Source: an uncultured Acidimicrobiales bacterium
GTDB lineage: Bacteria > Actinomycetota > Acidimicrobiia > Acidimicrobiales > AC-14
Length of the DNA: 36,829 nucleotides
Direction: 5' to 3'
NCBI GenBank assembly: GCA_964440725.1
Contig: CAYTTL010000003.1
Coordinates: 1-36,829, forward strand
Of this stretch, positions 1-36,829 are shown one piece after another; within the stretch, counting starts at the first letter, position 1; every line of letters begins with the position of its first letter. The position numbers and the translations under genes were made by a program. Below the pieces are notes generated by a model. That model did no database searches. It was not told where the DNA came from and saw only the letters and a program-made list of their open reading frames with translations.

Positions 1-55
1 GAGCTGGTCCCGGAGCTGGCCCCCGAGCTGGCCCCGGAGCTGGTCCCAGAGCTGG
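1..55. repeat. Exact 55-nt terminal direct repeat (identical to 36775..36829)
   Basis: Direct string comparison of both ends gives GAGCTGGTCCCGGAGCTGGCCCCCGAGCTGGCCCCGGAGCTGGTCCCAGAGCTGG at each. The same string also recurs at 181..235. Confidence 0.97.
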
Positions 56-252
56 CCCCCGAGCTGGTCCCGGAGCTGGCCCCGGAGCTGGTCCCGGAGC
101 TGGTCCCGGAGCTGGTCCCCGAGCTGGCCCCAGAGCTGGCCCCCGAGCTGGTCCCGGAGCTGGCCCCCGAGCTGGTCCCGGAGCTGGTCCCGGAGCTGGC
201 CCCCGAGCTGGCCCCGGAGCTGGTCCCAGAGCTGGCCCCCGAGCTGGTCCCC
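1..252 (-). repeat. 12-nt tandem repeat, 21 units, coding (xxQL tetrapeptides on the minus strand)
   Basis: Contiguous units GAGCTGG[T/C]CCC[G/A/C]. Block 1..60 is repeated exactly at 181..240. Confidence 0.97.
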
Positions 253-513
253 CGAAGGGGGGACGTTCTTGGCTCGGGGGCCAGCTCCCGTCGGCAGTTG
301 GCTGACAAGCCAACTGCCCAGGCAGCCGGCCCACGGGCTGTCGAGCCACACGATCACCGGCGCTGGCAACCCGATCGCCGCGTAGGCCTCGGTCACGCCG
401 GCGGCGGCGACCGCGCGATCGGCGGGGCCGGTGGCCAGGCCGGCGCTCAACCACTGCTGGCGGGCGTCGACGAGGCGCGCGAGCTCGCCGTCGTCGAGAG
501 GTGAGGTTCGCAT
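1..513 (-). CDS. 5' part of the repeat-containing early protein (N-terminal domain plus xxQL repeats); continues off the window start
   Basis: ATG at 513..511, 25 nt after the stop of the upstream gene. Translates [91 protein letters not shown], then runs in frame into the repeat. Absent from the ORF track because no stop lies in the window. Confidence 0.7.
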
Positions 514-538: not shown

Positions 539-958
539 TCAGTCGGCCACGAGGCGGGACTCGTCGGCCTGCTGGCGCTGGCGGCCCAGGGTGTAGGAGC
601 CGGAGCCGATGCCCGAGGCGCCGTGCTCGGGGTGCAGCAGGTAGGCCACCGCCCCCTCGCTGACCTGGATGTAGCCGAGGACGGTACCGGTGGGCCCGCC
701 CGCGACGGGGGCCCAGGACACGTCGCCCTCGGCGACGAGCAGGTGGGTGTTGCCGCCGACCTCGCCCCGTACCACGCCCACGCCGGCGGGCGGAACCTTG
801 GTACCCGGCTTGCGGGGACCCTGGATGGGAACGACGATCACGTCGCCCTGCACCTGGGTCTGGCCCGAGACGACAGGCACCTCGGCCTGGGCCTCGAGGT
901 GGGCGGGGATCTCGACGTCGTGGGCCGTGAGGACCTCGGCGTATGTGGTGGTGCTCAT
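539..958 (-). CDS. Hypothetical protein, 139 aa
   Basis: ATG at 958 forms an ATGA overlap with the stop of the 955..2013 gene. High third-position G+C. Begins MSTTTYAEVLTAHDVEIP. The longer track ORF (to 1159) overlaps the upstream gene. Confidence 0.8.
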   Translation of the reverse strand: MSTTTYAEVLTAHDVEIPAHLEAQAEVPVVSGQTQVQGDVIVVPIQGPRKPGTKVPPAGVGVVRGEVGGNTHLLVAEGDVSWAPVAGGPTGTVLGYIQVSEGAVAYLLHPEHGASGIGSGSYTLGRQRQQADESRLVAD

Positions 959-2013
959 GGGGCAGTGCTCCCTTTGCTTGGGACCGGAGCGGCGGTGCCG
1001 ACCCGGTCGTGAAACGCCCGACGGACTGCCGGGACGTCGGTCTTGTGCACTGCGTCGACCCTGGAGACGCGCCCGCCGGTGGCCGCGGCTAGCAGTGCGG
1101 AGATGTCGTCTTCGCTCATGTGAGCCGCCCGCGCGGCGCGGATGAACCGCCGGCGCCACTCGACGTCGACGAGGACCTCGTCCGCCTCGGTGAACAGCGG
1201 CGGCGGCGCGGGCCCGGCGGCCGCAGGGGTCGTGGATTCCTGCGGCCGCGGACCGGCGGGTGGATCAGGCGCCGGCGGGCTCAGCGTCGCCGGCGGGACG
1301 ACGTCGCCGGCGGCGAGCTCACCGGGCCGCGCGCCGGCAGCGAGCTCGGCGAGGGTCCCCCGCAGCCGGAGGACGGGGACGTTGAACTTGCGCTCGTAGG
1401 GCTCCCACGCCTTCTTGAGGCGACGCTCCTCGATGCCGAGACTCGCCTCGACCAGCTGGGCCCGACGGTTGATGGAGCCGATGCCTGCCAGCAGGTCGGC
1501 CTGGGCGCCGAGCTCGGAGACGGCGATCTCGGAGTGCGACGTGCACAGCCAGATCCCGAGGCCGGGGATGTCGGGCAGGACCACCCGCACCCGCACGGTG
1601 GCCACGCAGGCGCCCTTCTCGCGGTCCTCGTGGGGCACCAGGTTCTGCGCGGCGCACCGGCAGTCCATCTCCAGCAGCGACCCCATGGCCGGGACCATGC
1701 AGCGCAGGCCGTCGCAGCGCTGGGTGAGGCCTCCCGAGCCCCAGCGCTCGTAGGCGGTCTCGATGGCATCGGGAGGTAGCAGGACCGAGATCTCGGCCGC
1801 GTCGGAGAGGAGCTGCCAGACCTGCTCGCCCCTCACCCACCGCTCGACGGTGCCGCCGTAGCGCATGACCACCGCGCCCAGGGCCTCGCCGTCGTTGGAC
1901 GTGAACCGGAAGGCCGACAGCGGCTTGCCCGGCTTGCCCTCGTCCTCGGGGGCCTCGTCGCCCAGGCGGATCCGCCCGAGCGTCGGGTAGCGGACGGGGA
2001 GGTTGCGGATCAC
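955..2013 (-). CDS. Early protein, possibly phiC31 gp3-like (recombination directionality factor-like family); function uncertain
   Basis: 352-aa ORF with a GTG start in a GTGA overlap. N-terminus GRIRLGDE..GKPGKPLSAFRFTSNDGEALGAVVMRYGGTVERW and Cys cluster CDGLRC..CRC resemble my recollection of the gp3-like family. Needs HMM confirmation. Confidence 0.8.
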   Translation of the reverse strand: MIRNLPVRYPTLGRIRLGDEAPEDEGKPGKPLSAFRFTSNDGEALGAVVMRYGGTVERWVRGEQVWQLLSDAAEISVLLPPDAIETAYERWGSGGLTQRCDGLRCMVPAMGSLLEMDCRCAAQNLVPHEDREKGACVATVRVRVVLPDIPGLGIWLCTSHSEIAVSELGAQADLLAGIGSINRRAQLVEASLGIEERRLKKAWEPYERKFNVPVLRLRGTLAELAAGARPGELAAGDVVPPATLSPPAPDPPAGPRPQESTTPAAAGPAPPPLFTEADEVLVDVEWRRRFIRAARAAHMSEDDISALLAAATGGRVSRVDAVHKTDVPAVRRAFHDRVGTAAPVPSKGSTAP

Positions 2014-3184: not shown

Positions 3185-3417
3185 AGGACGATCCGCAGTG
3201 GGTAGGCGGCGAGGTCACCGTTGAGGGGGTCACGGCAGGTGGCCAGCTCGGCCTCGAACTCGGACTGGTCGGCGTCGCGGTGGACCGCGACGCGGGTGAT
3301 GAAGGCGTGCACGTCGATGCCGCTCGAGGTCCGGCCCTCCCAGACGCGGGCGGGCATCACAACCCCGTCGAGCTCGAGCTCGACCGTCCTGGTCGTGGAC
3401 TCCAACTCGATCTTCAC
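3181..3417 (-). CDS. Hypothetical protein, 78 aa
   Basis: GTG at 3417 in a GTGA overlap with the stop of the 3414..5480 gene. Protein-like composition. Confidence 0.75.
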   Translation of the reverse strand: MKIELESTTRTVELELDGVVMPARVWEGRTSSGIDVHAFITRVAVHRDADQSEFEAELATCRDPLNGDLAAYPLRIVL

Positions 3418-5480
3418 GACGCCGCCGCCCTCGGCCGGGCATTCCAGGTCCAGCCGGGCACCCGCTCAAGGGCCTCGACACGATCCGCGGCCAGACGTCC
3501 CCGACGGTGGGCCATGCGCTGTCCGGTGGCCCAGGACGCGAGGGGCGCGGGGAGCCGGAGCCGCTGGCCCTCCCGGTGATGGCGGATGGCGAAGGCGAAC
3601 AGCTTGTCGAGGTTCTCCTCCCACGCCGCCTCGTCGGTGTCCCACACCCAGCCCGGCACCACGTCGAGGCGGCGGATCCGGTCGGCCGTCATCGTCGATC
3701 GAGGCCGGGAACCGATCACGTTCTGGCGCTGCCTCGATGCCCAGGATCCGACCTTGAACCCGGCGTAGGTCTCCTTCTGGGGGGGCAGGCGGCCGTGTGC
3801 CTCCACGAAGGCCCTCAGGTGCAGCAGCCCCTCGTCCCACGCCGCGTCGTACACGGCGAAGTAGTCGTCGACCCACCCGGGCAGGGCGCGTAGGCGGGCG
3901 ATCCGGTCGTCTCGGAGGCTGCCCTCGCGGATCCGGCTGCGCTGCTTGTTGCACCACCGGCCGATCAGGAAACCGTCGATCGAGTCGCTGGCCGTGGGGT
4001 CGGCGGAGCCGTGGTCGGCGACCCAGCGCTCGAGCTTGGCGAAACTCTCGTCCCACTGCCGGTCCTTGGTGTTCCAACACCAGCCGGGGATGGCCTCGAG
4101 GGCGGCGATGCGGTCGGGGTACAGGTTCAGCCGGTGCCCGTCGTGGTCGGTGCGAGCGGCACGGCAGGAGTTGAGGAACAGGCCCGGTTTCTGGCCCCGC
4201 CACTCCTCAAGGTGGTGGGGGTCGCGGCCGTGGGTGACCATGAACTCGCGCAGCAGGTCGAACTTGGCCCACCAGCCCTCGTCACGCGGGTCCCATCTCC
4301 AGCACCCCACCGCCTCGAGGGCCTGCGTGCGCTCCTTGGCCAGCAGTCCCCGCCGGCGCAGCGTCCGCTGGACAGTGCACCACGCCCCGAGGGAGAAAGT
4401 GCCCGAGTCGTCGGGGACCTTGGTGCCCTGGCCGGGAAGTGCTCCCGTCTCGGCGACGTAGTCGAGCAGGCGCCCGTAGGCCTCGTCCCAGGAGGGGGTC
4501 GCCTCGCGGACCAGGTGCAGTGCCATGGCGCCGGCGAGATCACCCGTGGCCCCTCCAGGAACGTGCATCTCCACCCGCGACCGCAGCAGCCCGTGAGCGG
4601 CCCGGCGGCGCAGCGCCGCCCCGAGCCTGACAGCCGGCTGGACCCGGGTCCCCAGCTGGCGGCGGGTGGTGGCCAGGCGCGCCGACAACTCGTCGTCGTG
4701 GGACGACAGCGCCCGCCCGCCCCACCATCCCTCGCGCTCGCCGTTGTAGAGGGCCGAGCCCAGGCACGCCGACTTCACCGGGCACCCGTCGCAGATGGCA
4801 CGGAGGGGCCTCGTGTCGCAGCCGCGGCCCGGGTAGAACTGGTTCGGGTCCAGCCCGGCGCACGGGGCGTCGTCCCACCACCCCGGGGCGGCCTCGTCGG
4901 GACCACCCGGGAGCAAGGCCAAAGCGACGGCCATACCCAGCACGTCCTCGTCAACGCCGGAGGCGGCCGAGGCCTCGGCCAGGACCAGGGGCTCCAGTGC
5001 TGGTGCGGCCACGCTCATGGCGCAGTCGCGGGTTCGGGCCAGCTGAACGCCGACCAGGTCAGGTGGATGGTCTCGCCCCGACCACTCGCTGGCGCCGAGG
5101 GGCTCACGGCGCAGCGCCCGGAACCGCGCAGCGGGCCTGGACCCCTCGTCGTCGATCTCGACGTCGAGGCCGCACCCCGCAGGGAGGACGTCGATCACGG
5201 CGCAGACCTGGCGGGCGCTCACGACGCCGCCGACCGGAGCTGCTCGGGAAGCAGGGCGACCGGGGATGAGGCGCGGCGGGACGAGGTCGCGGCGAGGGCG
5301 GGCCAAGTGGTCCATCACGTCGACGTGGTGGCGGTGCTGGGCGACCGCCTCGCGCTGGCGTCGACGAGGGACCCCCCGCCACGAGCAACCACCACAGGAG
5401 GGCGCCCACCGGTGGACGTGGCCGAGGCCGCGATCGGTAAGGACGAGGGGGTGGTGCCGCCGTCTCCGCCGCCGGGCCAT
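3414..5480 (-). CDS. Large early protein: Arg/His-rich N-terminal region, WhiB-like 4-Cys domain, five helicase-associated (HA) domain-like repeats
   Basis: 688-aa ORF with high GC3 from 5480. Aa ~201-256 read APCAGLD..GRGCDTRPLRAICDGCPVKSACL..GWWGG (WhiB-like CxxCx5C plus G-W-GG). Five repeats of the W..f..L..F...G......G..LG.W...QR......L...R...L..hPGW.W pattern fill aa ~330-680. The start is coupled (TGATG) to the small upstream ORF. Confidence 0.85.
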   Translation of the reverse strand: MARRRRRRHHPLVLTDRGLGHVHRWAPSCGGCSWRGVPRRRQREAVAQHRHHVDVMDHLARPRRDLVPPRLIPGRPASRAAPVGGVVSARQVCAVIDVLPAGCGLDVEIDDEGSRPAARFRALRREPLGASEWSGRDHPPDLVGVQLARTRDCAMSVAAPALEPLVLAEASAASGVDEDVLGMAVALALLPGGPDEAAPGWWDDAPCAGLDPNQFYPGRGCDTRPLRAICDGCPVKSACLGSALYNGEREGWWGGRALSSHDDELSARLATTRRQLGTRVQPAVRLGAALRRRAAHGLLRSRVEMHVPGGATGDLAGAMALHLVREATPSWDEAYGRLLDYVAETGALPGQGTKVPDDSGTFSLGAWCTVQRTLRRRGLLAKERTQALEAVGCWRWDPRDEGWWAKFDLLREFMVTHGRDPHHLEEWRGQKPGLFLNSCRAARTDHDGHRLNLYPDRIAALEAIPGWCWNTKDRQWDESFAKLERWVADHGSADPTASDSIDGFLIGRWCNKQRSRIREGSLRDDRIARLRALPGWVDDYFAVYDAAWDEGLLHLRAFVEAHGRLPPQKETYAGFKVGSWASRQRQNVIGSRPRSTMTADRIRRLDVVPGWVWDTDEAAWEENLDKLFAFAIRHHREGQRLRLPAPLASWATGQRMAHRRGRLAADRVEALERVPGWTWNARPRAAAS

Positions 5481-6887: not shown

Positions 6888-7859
6888 GTGGTATCGGCGG
6901 CTCACCTTCGCCTCGTCGATCCGCAATCGCCCGGCTCCACGATGCCCCGGCTCCGGGGCATGCCATCTCGCTTCGTACTACGCGCCGAACTCCAAGGCAT
7001 GGGCTTCTCGCCAAAGACGGTCGACACCTACTACGGAATAATCACCAGGGCCGACACGTGGATGACGGCGCGTGGCCACCCGGCGGCGAAGGCGCCGGCG
7101 AGCCTGGTCGCCCGGTACGCCGACACCCTCCCCCGATCGTGGTCGACCCGCAAGGGCCTGCGCGCCGCCCTCGCCGCCTACTGGGAGCTGGTCCACCGGC
7201 GGAACCCACCGCTGGCGGTGATCCGGGTACCCCCGAAACCCGAGATGGTGTGCCGTGCCCTCGATGAGGACGAGGCGGCCGCCCTGGCCAGGGCGGCACG
7301 CGACCGGGGTGACATGCGGGCGTTCCCGATGACGCTCGGGCTCTACCAGGCGATGCGCCGGGAGGAGATGGCGCGCTGTCGCTGGGTCGACTTCAAGGGC
7401 GGCCGCATGCTCACGGTCATCGGCAAGGGCGAGAAGCAACGGACCCTCGACGTCAGCCCGTCCGTGCTCGGTCATCCGTACTTCCGGGCCCACCGACCAC
7501 CCACCCCCGGAGCGGGCGACTATCTGTTCCCAGGCCGCTTCGGAGGACACGTGAACCCGGCAACCATCTGGAAATGGGTCACTGAGCTCGCCGAGGACGT
7601 CGGTGTGTTCGGGGTTACCCCCCACCGGCTCCGCCACACCTGCCTGGCCACACAAAACGACACCACCGGCGATCTCCGGGCCGTGCGCGACTTCGCCGGC
7701 CACTCCCGAACGGCGACGACGGAGGGCTACACCCGGACGAAGGCCTCGGCCATGCATGCGGTGATGCTGAGCGTCGACTACCTCAACGAGCGGCCCAGGC
7801 GTGGCCGGCGGCCGCACGCCCCGCCCCCGTCGCTCTTCGACGACGACGAAGGTAGGTGA
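6888..7859 (+). CDS. int: Tyrosine recombinase / phage integrase
   Basis: 323-aa ORF. Catalytic-type motifs MRREEM (Arg), HRLRHT (H-x-x-R) and GHSRTATTEGYTR (His..Tyr). Confidence 0.9.
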   Translation: MVSAAHLRLVDPQSPGSTMPRLRGMPSRFVLRAELQGMGFSPKTVDTYYGIITRADTWMTARGHPAAKAPASLVARYADTLPRSWSTRKGLRAALAAYWELVHRRNPPLAVIRVPPKPEMVCRALDEDEAAALARAARDRGDMRAFPMTLGLYQAMRREEMARCRWVDFKGGRMLTVIGKGEKQRTLDVSPSVLGHPYFRAHRPPTPGAGDYLFPGRFGGHVNPATIWKWVTELAEDVGVFGVTPHRLRHTCLATQNDTTGDLRAVRDFAGHSRTATTEGYTRTKASAMHAVMLSVDYLNERPRRGRRPHAPPPSLFDDDEGR

Positions 7860-8924: not shown

Positions 8925-9307
8925 CAGGGGCGCTTTGGGGGTCGGGTACGGCGGACGGCCGACTCGCCGCGCAACTCGGCGACCTCGGCTTCGAGCGTCT
9001 CGACTCGGTGCTCGAGCTCCTGGTTGCGCCGCTGCTCGTGAGCCAGGGCCTCCTCGGCCACGCGGCGGGCCTCCTCGGCCACGCGGCGGGCCTCCTCGGC
9101 CTCGGCCAACTGAGTGGTCATGCGCCGCTCCAGCTCGGCCATCTGCGTCCGCAACCCTTCGAGGGCGTCCTTCTGCACCACGATCACGTCGGTGGCCGAG
9201 TCCACGATGATCTTGGTCACCTCGGGCTTGTACTTGAGGATGGCGACGAGGGCACCGACGAGACCGCCGACGGTCGTGACGACTGCGATCACCAGCGAGG
9301 TGTCCAT
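8924..9307 (-). CDS. N-terminally membrane-anchored coiled-coil protein of the lysis cassette, 127 aa
   Basis: ATG at 9307 overlaps the holin stop (TGATG). TM segment MDTSLVIAVVTTVGGLVGALVAIL followed by a Glu/Arg-rich helical region. Confidence 0.8.
   Translation of the reverse strand: MDTSLVIAVVTTVGGLVGALVAILKYKPEVTKIIVDSATDVIVVQKDALEGLRTQMAELERRMTTQLAEAEEARRVAEEARRVAEEALAHEQRRNQELEHRVETLEAEVAELRGESAVRRTRPPKRP
9047..9101 (-). repeat. 21-nt tandem repeat, ~2.6 copies, coding (AEEARRV duplication)
   Basis: GGCCTCCTCGGCCACGCGGCG at 9047..9067 and 9068..9088, with a partial third copy. Confidence 0.9.
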
Positions 9308-20856: not shown

Positions 20857-21245
20857 CAGACGTTCTCCTCGGTGCGCTCGGGCTGGTCTGTGGCGTCACC
20901 GTCGCCGGTGTCCTCGTCGTCGTCCTCGTCGTCGTCCTCGTCGGGCTCCTCGACTTCGTCGGCGTCGGCGTCGGTGGCTGGAGCGAAGTCGACGCCCACG
21001 TTGTCGGCCACCGCCGGCGACGTCGCCGGATCGTGTCTGTCCGGGAGCCTGGGCTCGGCCCGGTCGGCAGCCACGGCCTTGGCCGCCTTGGTGTTGGGCC
21101 GCTCCCATACCGCCTGCTCGAGCAGCGAGGCGGCGAGGCCCGCGTCATCGATGGTGACCGTCTCGCCGTGGCCGACCAGCTGGCCCGTGGCCTCGATCTC
21201 GACGCCGTCGACGAAGGGCCCGACGTAGGTGATCCTGGTGCCCAT
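20856..21245 (-). CDS. Hypothetical head-tail region protein with a strongly acidic C-terminal tail, 129 aa
   Basis: Track ORF. The EEPDEDDDEDDDEDTGDGD tail is encoded by a TCCTCGTCGTCG repeat at 20911..20943. Confidence 0.8.
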   Translation of the reverse strand: MGTRITYVGPFVDGVEIEATGQLVGHGETVTIDDAGLAASLLEQAVWERPNTKAAKAVAADRAEPRLPDRHDPATSPAVADNVGVDFAPATDADADEVEEPDEDDDEDDDEDTGDGDATDQPERTEENV

Positions 21246-23204: not shown

Positions 23205-24218
23205 TCAGGTCCACGTGATCACGGCCCACCCGGCGCCGCCGACGCCACCAGCGCCAGAGCCCCCTACGTCGTTTCGCGCCGCACCCCCGCCGCCGCCACT
23301 GCCGCCGTAGATCCCGTTCCCGCCCCGGCCGGCGTTGCCCGTCACCGACGACGCACCGCCGCCGCCGCCGGTGCCGCCGAGGGGCCGCGTCGCCGGGTGC
23401 ACCGCATCGCCGCCGTTCCCGCCCGGGGCGATGCCGGCGACCGGCGCTGCCGTGCGGCGACGGTTCCCAGGCTGGAGCCCGGTGCCTCCGTTCGACGTGG
23501 CGTTGGCCGCGGTCAACCCACCGCCGGCACCGCCGGACGAACCCATGCCAGCCACGACCCCGGTCGTTCCGACCAGACCGCCGGCCGAACTCGCTCGACC
23601 GGCCCCTCCATTGATCTTGCCGACACCAGCGACACCGGCGGTCGCCGCCACGCCCGTCGCCTGGCCGCCGCCGCCGCCGGTGCCGCCGTCGGCGGCGACG
23701 AGCGAGTCAGCCGATCCCGACGACGGGCCGAACCATGAGTCCTCTGCACTCCCGCCGGTCCCGCCGGCCGAACTGTTGGCCTCGGCGGCCGTGCCAGCGG
23801 CTCCGCCACTCGCCACTCTCATGGCGAGTGATCCGAGGGCGACCAGGTCGGCCACGGTGCCGGCGGCCTCCGACCAGGCACCGGCACCGCCCGACGCTCC
23901 GCCGGTGGCGATGACTCCGCTCGGCCCCTTCCCGCCGCCGCCGCCGCCGCCGCCGCCGCCCATCATTTCCAGGTGCCAGAGCGTCGCGCCGACCGGGGGC
24001 GTGATTGCGTAGAGACCGGGGACGGTGTAGGTGTCGACCTGCACTAAGGCAGCAAGCCGCGCTGTGAGGTTGGCGAAGGCCCCCGAGGGGTCGGCGCCGA
24101 GCTCGTCGACGATGTCGTTGACAGCGGCGGCCACGGCGTTGTGGCGCTCGGCGTGCTCCGACGGCGTGGCGGTGGCGTCGGTGGCGTCGGTTTCCGGAGC
24201 GCCGGGCGGGTACGCCAC
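23205..24218 (-). CDS. Glycine-rich domain protein (fibre-like) located in the head module
   Basis: 337 aa. N-terminal HAERHNAVAAAVNDIVDELG fibre-type motif, then TYTVPG.Y...P.GATLWHLEMMGGGGGGGGGG and long irregular Gly-rich tracts ending GGAGWAVITWT. Confidence 0.85.
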   Translation of the reverse strand: MAYPPGAPETDATDATATPSEHAERHNAVAAAVNDIVDELGADPSGAFANLTARLAALVQVDTYTVPGLYAITPPVGATLWHLEMMGGGGGGGGGGKGPSGVIATGGASGGAGAWSEAAGTVADLVALGSLAMRVASGGAAGTAAEANSSAGGTGGSAEDSWFGPSSGSADSLVAADGGTGGGGGQATGVAATAGVAGVGKINGGAGRASSAGGLVGTTGVVAGMGSSGGAGGGLTAANATSNGGTGLQPGNRRRTAAPVAGIAPGGNGGDAVHPATRPLGGTGGGGGASSVTGNAGRGGNGIYGGSGGGGGAARNDVGGSGAGGVGGAGWAVITWT

Positions 24219-31704: not shown

Positions 31705-31968
31705 TTATCCCCCAACGACCGACAGCGTCTCCCGCTCCCGAGTCTCCTCGCACGCCGCCGCCTTGGCGCCCAGGGCGGCCCGGGCCATCGAGGTCGACAG
31801 CGCCCGATAGGTGGACACGGCGTATCCCACGCCCTTGAAGCTTGGCTTGCCCGAGCGTCGGAAGTACTCCTTGAGCACCTCGGCCGCTGTGTCCCGTTGG
31901 GTCTCGAGGGGGACCAGCTTGCGCTTGGCCTCGAGCCACGACTTGGCCGCTTCGGTCACCGTCATCAC
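31705..31968 (-). CDS. Hypothetical protein, 87 aa
   Basis: GTG/ATG start overlapping the recombinase stop (GTGATGA). Confidence 0.7.
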   Translation of the reverse strand: MMTVTEAAKSWLEAKRKLVPLETQRDTAAEVLKEYFRRSGKPSFKGVGYAVSTYRALSTSMARAALGAKAAACEETRERETLSVVGG

Positions 31969-32591
31969 GCACTCGCCTCCAAGCGGCGGATCACCCGTCG
32001 CAGGGTCTCGGGGTGCCAGGACTGGGATCGCTTGGGCCTGAGTCCCTCGCGCTCGAGCACCGTGGCCATGGCCCGGAGTGACATGCCGCGACCTCGGAGC
32101 TCGCCGATGCGGCGGATCACGGCCTGCTCGTCGACGTCGACGACGAGCTCTCGATCGACGGTGCGCCAGCCGAGGGGCGGGGAGCCGTAGGCGTAGCCCC
32201 CGCGCGCCGCCTTGGCTACGCGGCCTGCGTTCATCCGGGCGACGATCAGGGCTCGCTCGTACTGGGAGATGGCGCCGAGCACCTGGCGGATGAGAACCCT
32301 GGTCGGGTCGTTGCCCTCGATGTCGGGCTCGGTGACCGAGCGCACCTGGCGGCCGAGGCGAGCGATGCGCTCGAGGATCGTCTCCTGGACGATGAGATCT
32401 CGGGCCAGGCGGTCGAGGCGGTAGACCACCAGCGCATCGGCCCGGCCCGTCTCCATGGCGGCCAGAGCCAGGGTGAGGCCGGGCCGGTCGAAGAGCTTGC
32501 CGCTCACTCCCTCATCCGCGTGCAGCGCCACCAGGTGGAGGCCTGCCTCGGCGCAGAACGAGCGGATCCGCTCCTCCTGGACCGTGCGCAC
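31965..32591 (-). pseudogene. Serine recombinase (resolvase/invertase family) lacking the N-terminal catalytic-serine segment
   Basis: The ORF begins at ..VRTVQEERIRSFCAEAGLHLVALHADEGVSGK.. and retains YRLDRLARD and the GGYAYGSPPLGW..W.PETL region. No YxRVSxxxQ-type segment exists upstream in the frame. Confidence 0.8.
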
Positions 32592-35581: not shown

Positions 35582-35953
35582 TCATAGGCCCGGCAAGTGC
35601 AGCTGGATTCCCGTGGTCAGGCAGGCGTGGCTGACGATCCGATCACGGACTACACGCGCCGAGGGCGACGTCTCTACGCGCTGGCAGGCGTTGATCACCG
35701 TGGTGTGATCCCGGTTGAAGAACCGGCCCAATGCCGGATAGGACCACCCGCTCGACGCGCGAGCCGCGGCCATGGCGACGTGACGCCAGCGCACCAGCGG
35801 CAGTGACCGACGTTGGCCGAGGAGCTCGCCAACCGAGAACCCCGACTCGGCGGCGGTCGCGGCGAGCACGACCGAGGGGTGTGGACCCTCCATGGTGTCG
35901 AACGGATCCTCCCGGAAGCACGCGGCGGCATCCACAGGAACCCCTGAGGTCAT
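35582..35953 (-). CDS. Stand-alone DnaA domain IV (Bac_DnaA_C)-like DNA-binding protein, 123 aa
   Basis: ATG at 35953 in an ATGA overlap with the upstream stop. SVGELLGQRRSLPLVRWRHVAMAAARASSGWSYPALGRFFNRDHTTVINACQRVE aligns by eye with E. coli DnaA [56 protein letters not shown]. Confidence 0.88.
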   Translation of the reverse strand: MTSGVPVDAAACFREDPFDTMEGPHPSVVLAATAAESGFSVGELLGQRRSLPLVRWRHVAMAAARASSGWSYPALGRFFNRDHTTVINACQRVETSPSARVVRDRIVSHACLTTGIQLHLPGL

Positions 35954-36829
35954 GTCCGGCGCGCCATCCCGGCGTACTGCTTGCGGGAGACGACCGGGTA
36001 GGTCCAGGCCGCCGCGCTGAGGGCGTCGTCGATCTCGGCGGGGACGGTGAGACCGAAGCGTCGGCGGGTGCCGTCGCGCTCGGGAGAGCCGTTGGTGCAC
36101 AGCAGCAGCCGCACGCGGGTTCGTCCGTAGACCTGCAGGCGGTCGGGGAGCTCGTAGAGCGCCAGCTGCTGGCCGGGGTTGCCGGGATCCGCGGCGGTGG
36201 CCACGAGGCTCAGGGAGGCCGCGACCACGAAGCGGTCCCAGCCGATGACCTCGACGGCGGCCCGGCGCAGCTCGGTGTTGGGCTCGGCCATGATGCGCTC
36301 GAGGGGCCACCCGGCGATGAGGTCGGGCGGCACCCGAAGCCCGTGCCAGGCGTGGATGGCCCAGGTGTCGGGGTAGGCGATCGCCGGGCCGTCCTCGCTG
36401 TGCAGGCGGCCCTCGGCGTCACGACGAAGGACGGTCGGCCGCTCGGTGAGGACGCATACACCGCGCATCGGCCACCACCACCCAGATGAGGTGGCGATGG
36501 AGATCTCGGCGGCCAGGGCCCGGCTGGCCCACGGCTCGTACTGCACGCCGAGCTCGTCCTCGGGCCAGCGGCAGAAGGCCAGCCAGTACAGATCGTGCTG
36601 GCCGTACAAGGCCAGACCGAGCTGGCCCCGGAGCTGGCCCCGGAGCTGGTCCCCGAGCTGGCCCCGGAGCTGGCCCCCGAGCTGGTCCCCGAGCTGGCCC
36701 CAGAGCTGGCCCCGGAGCTGGCCCCCGAGCTGGCCCCGGAGCTGGTCCCAGAGCTGGTCCCCGAGCTGGCCCCAGAGCTGGTCCCGGAGCTGGCCCCCGA
36801 GCTGGCCCCGGAGCTGGTCCCAGAGCTGG
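35950..36829 (-). CDS. 3' part of the repeat-containing early protein (xxQL repeats plus C-terminal WWP/ERP domain, DUF6745-like by recollection)
   Basis: The repeat frame CAG CTC NGG GNC runs without stops into ..[14 protein letters not shown].. of track ORF 35950..36609. The C-terminal domain contains [18 protein letters not shown]. Confidence 0.8.
36619..36829 (-). repeat. 12-nt tandem repeat, 17 full units plus 7 nt, same family as 1..252
   Basis: Contiguous GAGCTGG[T/C]CCC[G/A/C] units. The last 55 nt equal nt 1..55. Confidence 0.97.

Follow-up and report, generated by a model that had tools for sequence, protein, structure and literature searches.

Organization of the locus

The DNA analyzed in this work (the window, i.e., the whole stretch of 36,829 nucleotides) is a temperate siphophage of a high-G+C host, a 36.8-kb actinophage harboring genes for the terminase, portal, major head protein, tape measure, endolysin, a tyrosine integrase, a serine recombinase, a WhiB fusion and a Gp3-like recombination directionality factor (RDF). 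The last 55 nucleotides are identical to the first 55 (36775..36829 = 1..55), and this terminal overlap closes a circle of 36,774 nucleotides. Across the junction lies a minus-strand gene, whose 445-aa product consists of an N-terminal domain (aa 1–87, encoded by 253..513, with the ATG at 513..511), a linker corresponding to a tandem array of 12-nt units (residues 88–223, encoded by 1..252 plus 36619..36774) and a C-terminal DUF6745 domain (aa 224–445, encoded with the stop codon by 35950..36618). The gene is located in the phage early region, next to replication genes; the gene content of the window is in agreement with the initial annotation, which had assigned the array to a phage early gene.

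The C-terminal domain belongs to the Pfam family PF20530 (DUF6745), the match extending over residues 223–439 with an E value of 4.7e-36 and a score of 124.4 bits versus a cut-off of 27. The N-terminal domain carries the family motif W-x-DSP-x-x-G, in which D58, S59, P60 and G63 are invariant in one alignment of the family (A2) and W56, S59 and P60 reach a conservation of 90% or more in another (A1). Within the region coding for this domain, about 40 nucleotides before the array in the mRNA sense, there is an inverted repeat (293..318) with perfectly matching 11-bp arms separated by a 4-nt loop, whose predicted RNA minimum free energy is −39.5 kcal/mol over 51 nucleotides (z = −6.7); stems of at least 9 bp were detected upstream of the array in 4/76 related loci versus 0/76 control regions. 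The same inverted repeat contains the rare codons AGT, CTT and CAA, despite a GC3 of 0.93 for the gene.

Immediately upstream of the array gene, on the same strand, lies a partner gene (539..958, minus strand; 139 aa; phrog_27831), whose ATG overlaps the stop codon of the Gp3-like RDF gene (955..2013, minus strand; ATGA at 958..955) and whose stop codon is located 25 nucleotides before the ATG of the DUF6745 gene. The partner and the array gene probably form an operon in the window. Partner homologues (134–142 aa) were retrieved near a DUF6745 gene in 89 of the 138 sequences searched, mostly adjacent to it, either upstream or downstream, which suggests that the two genes represent a conserved two-gene module. 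Searches against Pfam, PDB sequences and PADLOC returned no match for the partner protein.

The AF2 models of the array protein assign a pLDDT of 89–98 to residues 1–70 of the N-terminal domain and mostly higher than 90 to the C-terminal domain. The array is helical in two models at low confidence (pLDDT of about 47–75): the 34-unit array comes out as a pair of long helices, and a 10-unit version as a single one. On the basis of these models, the array is probably an alpha-helical linker of variable length between the N-terminal and DUF6745 domains. A Foldseek search with the AF2 models disclosed no relative in the PDB (best E value 1.1), and the matches in BFVD were exclusively other DUF6745 proteins. 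In the PDB sequence profile search, the matches were restricted to Q-rich low-complexity regions; PADLOC and NCBIfam gave nothing for the array protein, and the literature searched contained no publications on DUF6745, nor any retrieved for repeat peptides.

Some other features of the window can be mentioned here. A 688-aa protein (3414..5480, minus strand) combines a WhiB domain with four helicase-associated (HA) repeats, an unusual early-region fusion. The phage encodes two site-specific recombinases, the tyrosine integrase and a small serine recombinase/resolvase, at 6888..7859 (plus strand) and 31965..32591 (minus strand). Further tandem repeats disclosed by TRF are a perfect 21-nt repeat of 2.7 copies (9046..9101), a 12-nt repeat of 5.2 copies (20910..20972; GTCCTCGTCGTC) and (CCG) in 9.7 copies (23932..23960).

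Unit composition, reading frame and assembly

On the forward strand, all the units of the array, i.e., the 21 of the promoter-proximal part (1..252) and the 17 complete ones of the distal part (36619..36822, followed by a 7-nt partial unit reaching position 36829), read GAGCTGG[T/C]CCC[G/A/C], and 34 of them are left once the terminal overlap is merged. On the minus strand, the unit reads [C/T/G]GG G[A/G]C CAG CTC, encoding (R/W/G)(D/G)QL, with the six unit types represented as RD 7, RG 8, GG 8, GD 5, WD 3 and WG 3. These figures are the same as those of the initial annotation, in the unit pattern, in the 21 and 17 units, in the total and in the six tallies. The variable sites in the window array are coding-strand nucleotides 1 and 5 only, both nonsynonymous, with zero synonymous differences; the earlier statement that ten of the 12 positions are invariant and that no synonymous difference exists therefore holds in the minus-strand frame, which is the one backed by homology. 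A pattern of two consecutive units was matched 36 times in the whole window, versus 0.03 matches expected, and none of the matches fell outside the array. The 36-nt period proposed by TRF was not supported by unit-level autocorrelation at lag 3, either in the window array or across related arrays.

Six of six reading frames are open across the array, so that the coding strand is not readable from the array alone and the flanking regions are needed. The minus-strand frame is the only one joining the N-terminal domain (ATG at 513) to the DUF6745 domain, and its GC3 is 0.93; the antisense frame, which reads E-L-(A/V)-P and in which one of the two changes is synonymous, is not backed by homology. 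The codon usage of the phage itself is 0.50 CTC and 0.41 CTG for leucine, 0.36 CGG and 0.42 CGC for arginine, and 0.18 GGG and 0.65 GGC for glycine. Under independent draws from this usage, the codon uniformity observed in the array has a P of ~1e-32, which argues that the units have been copied from one another and that they are not a peptide motif independently encoded many times. The length of the unit, 12 nucleotides, is a multiple of three and keeps every copy number in frame, at variance with what is expected for a phase-variable on/off contingency locus.

The number and the order of the units have to be considered separately from their composition. The exact higher-order repeat reported at the beginning (1..60 = 181..240) is present, but its true extent is longer: it is a 71-nt sequence (1..71 = 181..251), the longest exact internal repeat, which begins at the first base of the contig. 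Because of this starting point, the total of 34 units is assembly-dependent and, with the second copy at 181..251, the length of the array is ambiguous, corresponding to 19 + 15n units. The 55-nt terminal overlap is the first 55-mer of this repeat and represents a branching node of the assembly graph; 17 repeated 55-mers occur in the array and none at k ≥ 77, and the contig end is compatible with a k = 55 graph path cut at the branching node. The repeated 5-unit block is itself only marginally unusual (P = 0.04 versus shuffles).

A similar picture emerged from the related loci. As an example, one Pseudonocardia prophage is available in three independent public assemblies (L053, L132 and L133), which share identical flanks of 5,207 and 5,675 nucleotides (10.9 kb) and contain 17, 17 and 11 units, the disagreement being confined to the array; two partial contigs of the same gene (P0171 and P0172) combine the beginning of one version with the final part of another. 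This suggests that the three arrays are different collapses of one longer array. Moreover, 14 of the 80 viral contigs end within the array. Given the assembly break in the window and the disagreement between assemblies, copy number, unit order and higher-order repeat are not to be interpreted, and the 34-unit count and the higher-order repeat cannot be retained as biological features, as they were initially regarded. The same caution applies to the comparative arrays, mostly derived from short-read assemblies in which order and number are unreliable. Whole-unit differences do occur between proteins at least 90% identical, although assemblies with identical flanks also disagree; two near-identical Mycobacterium abscessus genes, with 42 and 14 units, differ by a clean internal deletion. 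An attempt to separate point change from unit turnover by means of close relatives was defeated by assembly collapse, as exemplified by the Pseudonocardia case.

These same data might be read as a sign that the pattern itself was produced by the assembly, through collapse of a repeat or formation of a chimera, since the 71-nt repeat begins where the contig does, the overlap corresponds to a branching k-mer, some contigs stop within the array and assemblies with identical flanks give different numbers of units. Such an explanation is, however, extremely improbable: the array and its two flanking domains share one reading frame, and the same unit with the same variable sites occurs in more than 100 independent contigs and in cultured isolates. 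Gene 38 of prophiGD102-1, an isolate-derived Mycobacterium prophage (M. abscessus), harbors 46 units with the identical DNA unit and variable sites, which are also found in the isolates M. parascrofulaceum ATCC BAA-614 and Brevundimonas olei JCM 16237. The presence of the unit in genomes of cultured isolates makes the unit composition safe, and doubt is restricted to copy number and order, without touching the reality of the array. It follows from the behavior of these loci that such arrays break or collapse short-read assemblies and give spurious "circular" joins, so that the copy numbers published for them cannot be relied upon, nor can some genome ends.

Variation and homogenization in related arrays

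A search of 5.8 billion proteins yielded 602 scored relatives, the best of which is 59% identical to the window protein; among those inspected, the majority display [RWG][DG]QL or one of its variants, such as [RWG][DA]QV or [RWG][DA]SV. The DUF6745 domain alone comprises 6,808 clusters at 50% identity. The DNA of 217 loci in total (L001–L217) was fetched, the related ones being drawn from viral and genome collections and the genome scan being carried out with a 12-sequence alignment, and arrays were delimited with a DNA-periodicity finder. This led to 120 non-redundant homogenized arrays, 91 of which share the register N-GGG-N (2,461 units) and constitute the comparison set. The family spans several bacterial phyla, and the flanking domains are only 30–50% identical between arrays. 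Homogenized arrays were found in 69 of the 80 viral contigs (L138–L217) versus 19 of the 80 genome contigs (L052–L131) retrieved by a C-domain search of the same kind; on chromosomes, many DUF6745 genes possess a non-repetitive or decayed linker instead, and homogenized arrays are thus concentrated in phage-borne copies.

The distribution of variable sites in the comparison set is strongly uneven. On the coding strand, nucleotide 1 varies in 91/91 arrays, nucleotide 5 in 90/91 and nucleotide 2 in 27/91, and the third codon positions (nucleotides 3, 6, 9 and 12) vary in 10, 6, 4 and 11 of the 91 arrays, respectively; in 42 arrays, variation is limited to nucleotides 1 and 5. The initial annotation had indicated ordinary synonymous drift in relatives as the observation that would speak against its reading: such drift is absent from most arrays, and it is seen in a decayed minority. 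In the decayed array L067, for instance, the leucine codons are CTC 18, CTT 8 and CTA 6, and the degenerate arrays of clusters 1–5 are alike in this respect.

Synonymous choices differ from array to array. The consensus codon for the leucine or valine of the unit is CTC in 50 of the 91 arrays, CTT in 3, TTG in 1, GTC in 33 and GTG in 4, and the third base of the codon for the second residue (x2) is C in 63 and T in 28. Arginine is encoded exclusively by AGG in 49 arrays and exclusively by CGG in 32; both codons occur in nine arrays, in eight of which the minority codon is represented by a single unit, the only appreciable mix being that of array L148 (23 AGG to 15 CGG). CTG is never used for leucine in QL arrays, though it accounts for 41% of the leucine codons in the genes of the window. 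The succession CAG-CTG would put the 6-bp palindrome CAGCTG into every unit.

Synonymous changes fixed across whole arrays and nearly absent within them are the signature of concerted evolution. In the explanation that we favor, with a probability of roughly 0.7, the array is an in-frame coding minisatellite, the copies of which are homogenized by recombination, while selection at the protein level keeps R/W/G and D/G at the first two residues of the unit. According to this model, out-of-register recombination or slippage would continually duplicate, delete and recombine units; new changes would either sweep the whole array or vanish, and only differences maintained by selection on the protein would persist. 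The surviving unit types would then differ by minimal nucleotides, namely base 1 of NGG and base 2 of GNC, since, with everything else homogenized, selected unit types differ by the fewest possible nucleotides; moreover, tryptophan fixes TGG, so that arginine and glycine appear as [C/A]GG and GGG, and not as the preferred CGC and GGC. Concerted evolution of this kind would account both for the lack of synonymous differences and for the pair of nonsynonymous sites, with no need for targeted mutagenesis. It would thereby resolve the combination that the initial annotation could reconcile with neither an old nor a young repeat.

The contribution of selection is indicated, as far as sequence comparison goes, by three observations. 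Firstly, R, W and G are all present at the first residue (x1) in 88 of the 91 arrays, with mean fractions of 0.34, 0.28 and 0.39. Secondly, the alternative to D at x2 tracks the fourth residue (x4), being G in 50/52 arrays with QL units and A in 30/36 arrays with QV or SV units, a covariation that looks structural, internal to the four-residue unit. Thirdly, in decayed arrays x1 and x2 have drifted, and Q and the hydrophobic residue (L) have been retained. The suggestion of the initial annotation that units are shuffled or slip under selection is therefore backed, in that homogenization and two retained variable codon positions are common to 90–91 of the 91 arrays, and synonymous sites differ between arrays, not within them.

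A simpler scenario might be imagined, in which each array has recently expanded from a handful of unit variants differing by chance at two sites, with no selection on x1 and x2 and too little time for other changes to accumulate. The uniform backbone codons are what this would produce, some arrays do show recent block duplications of up to 10 units, and the decayed arrays would be the old stage expected. Nonetheless, the same sites and residues recur in 88–91 of the 91 arrays across QL, QV, SV and GV backbones and in several phyla, and such a recurrence, across divergent backbones and with flanks 30–50% identical, cannot be accounted for by chance founders. Besides, no array made up of a single unit type was found among the related ones, and the x2 alternative covaries with x4. 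A young expansion without selection is thus considered improbable.

It might also be asked whether the DNA itself is selected, as iterons or origin, as a recombination hotspot or through the antisense ORF E-L-(A/V)-P. The DNA unit NGG GNC CAG CTC is common to Actinomycetota and Alphaproteobacteria, leucine is never encoded by CTG, all six frames are open and replication genes adjoin the array gene; against these points, other lineages display the same peptide design on other backbones (TCG GTC, GCG GTC and GGC GTG), and decayed arrays conserve Q and L, not the DNA. In addition, the identities of the N- and C-terminal domains correlate (r = 0.65) and the arrays form no obvious mosaic joints; for the same reason, the idea that arrays are sites at which phages recombine into mosaics is unsupported. 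As for the antisense ORF, its "synonymy" is an automatic consequence of the relation between NGG and CCN, a point against that reading. Selection on the DNA therefore appears even less credible than a young expansion.

The initial annotation had left room for some targeted process, that is, mutagenesis directed to two nucleotides by a diversity-generating retroelement (DGR) or by another site-directed mechanism. The variable bases lie in the contexts NGG and GNC, in which stop codons cannot arise by substitution, a property shared by DGR targets, and two assemblies with identical flanks differ in nine consecutive units solely at nucleotides 1 and 5. These nine units, however, are better explained as different collapses, because both versions are carried by the partial contigs P0171 and P0172. 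AGG and CGG are almost never found together in one array, though they are about equally frequent overall (230 and 242, respectively, pooled over the first 55 arrays), and the presence of one arginine codon per array, decisive against a random rewriting of nucleotide 1, argues that the unit types are inherited and shuffled, not regenerated. The adenine of CAG is invariant, no reverse transcriptase was detected among the window ORFs scanned, and the window contains no second (template) copy of the unit outside the array. Within the ORFs scanned, the machinery of a DGR is thus missing, the substitution pattern is not that of a DGR target, and targeted mutagenesis is very hard to credit.

Turning back to homogenization combined with selection, several points are against it, among which are the mix of two arginine codons in L148, the low AF2 confidence in the array and the short-read origin of most comparative arrays. 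In addition, unit order in the related arrays is near random, identical neighbors are slightly rarer than expected (z = −2.45) and a significantly long repeated block is present in only about 11% of the arrays, the opposite of what simple one-unit slippage predicts. Out-of-register recombination with multiple offsets, selection against runs or the loss of block-rich arrays in short-read assemblies could contribute to this order pattern. Whatever their relative weight, these arrays lend themselves, as a natural system, to the study of concerted evolution in which polymorphism is maintained.

Comparison with known systems

The closest precedent is gp54 of the phage Tweety, in which unique N- and C-terminal regions surround 48 copies of a 12-bp unit encoding AA(G/W/Q)(S/Y) (Pham et al. 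2007, PMC2884959). In Tweety gene 54, third codon positions are invariant and changes fall at first and second positions, a pattern that its authors described as "consistent with selection for variation"; homologues are Che8 gp57 and PMC gp51, and copy number differs between relatives (PMC2884959). The nucleotide pattern was re-measured in this work, and the invariant third positions were reproduced. As summarized in two reviews, Tweety defense-escape mutants gain or lose repeats, tuning gp54 against the Phrann gp29/gp30 and MichelleMyBell defenses (Dedrick et al. 2017, summarized in PMC9262239 and PMC8549241).

The likeness between the two proteins concerns several aspects. Both possess a 12-bp in-frame unit encoding a tetrapeptide, repeated in tens of copies between unique termini (in the window, 34 units between regions of 87 and 222 aa); in both, third positions are invariant and variation affects first or second positions of the codons for two residues; and both are encoded by an early-region gene of a temperate actinophage near a WhiB gene. 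They differ in the unit, which is AA(G/W/Q)(S/Y) in Tweety and (R/W/G)(D/G)QL here, in the location of the large domain, which is N-terminal in Tweety and C-terminal in the window protein, and in the basis of their proposed role, since counter-defense has been tested for Tweety (PMC9262239) and is proposed for DUF6745 proteins by analogy. Homology of the flanks was not detected, with an hhalign probability of 0.13 (E value 0.45) and no Pfam hit for gp54. The sole aligned stretch between Tweety gp54 (L134) and alignment A2 is a W-x(n)-DSP-x-x-G motif located shortly before both arrays, which, at that E value, is not significant. Since gp54 is non-homologous, the likeness extends to the design, and possibly to the mode of action, but not to family membership, and the idea of tuning is extended to the window protein by analogy only. 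By this analogy, the copy number may set the spacing of the two flanking domains, changing it by ~6 Å and 40° per unit if the linker is helical, and conflict between phage and host, or between phages, might select for its rapid retuning. The initial annotation knew of no function described for an array of this sort in an early phage gene; a published, non-homologous precedent bearing the same nucleotide signature is Tweety gp54, in which the role of copy number has been tested (PMC2884959, PMC9262239).

Members of the same family as the window protein are prophiGD102-1 gp38 and the DUF6745 protein of the Microcystis phage LMM01, which have the N-terminal domain, the position of the linker and the partner gene in common with it. 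A further parallel is offered by phage genes with localized nonsynonymous hypervariability, among which VR2 is a tandem array that differs in copy number between isolates; in contrast to these, the window has no reverse transcriptase among the ORFs scanned, no template repeat and no adenine-specific pattern.

Transcription activator-like (TAL) effector repeats are 33–35 residues long and form a superhelix that reads DNA according to a known code. The array shares with them near-identical tandem repeats, variation almost entirely concentrated in two adjacent residues and reshuffling by recombination; it differs in that its unit is of four residues. It is tempting to speculate, as a long shot, that the DUF6745 protein and its small partner represent a very large, cross-phylum phage conflict module, for defense or counter-defense, the specificity of which out-of-register recombination in the array would retune within a few generations; the array length and the order of the six diresidue units (R/W/G × D/G) would then both serve as a code for spacing or recognition that can be rewritten, comparable, at the scale of four residues, to repeat-variable diresidues.

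If the analogy with Tweety holds, the signature of gp54, i.e., uniform synonymous sites together with two diverse residues, would represent a general design. Given this published analogue, the array phenomenon is not categorically new; earlier descriptions do not extend to the DUF6745 family, which is unrelated to gp54, far larger and cross-phylum, or to its partner gene.
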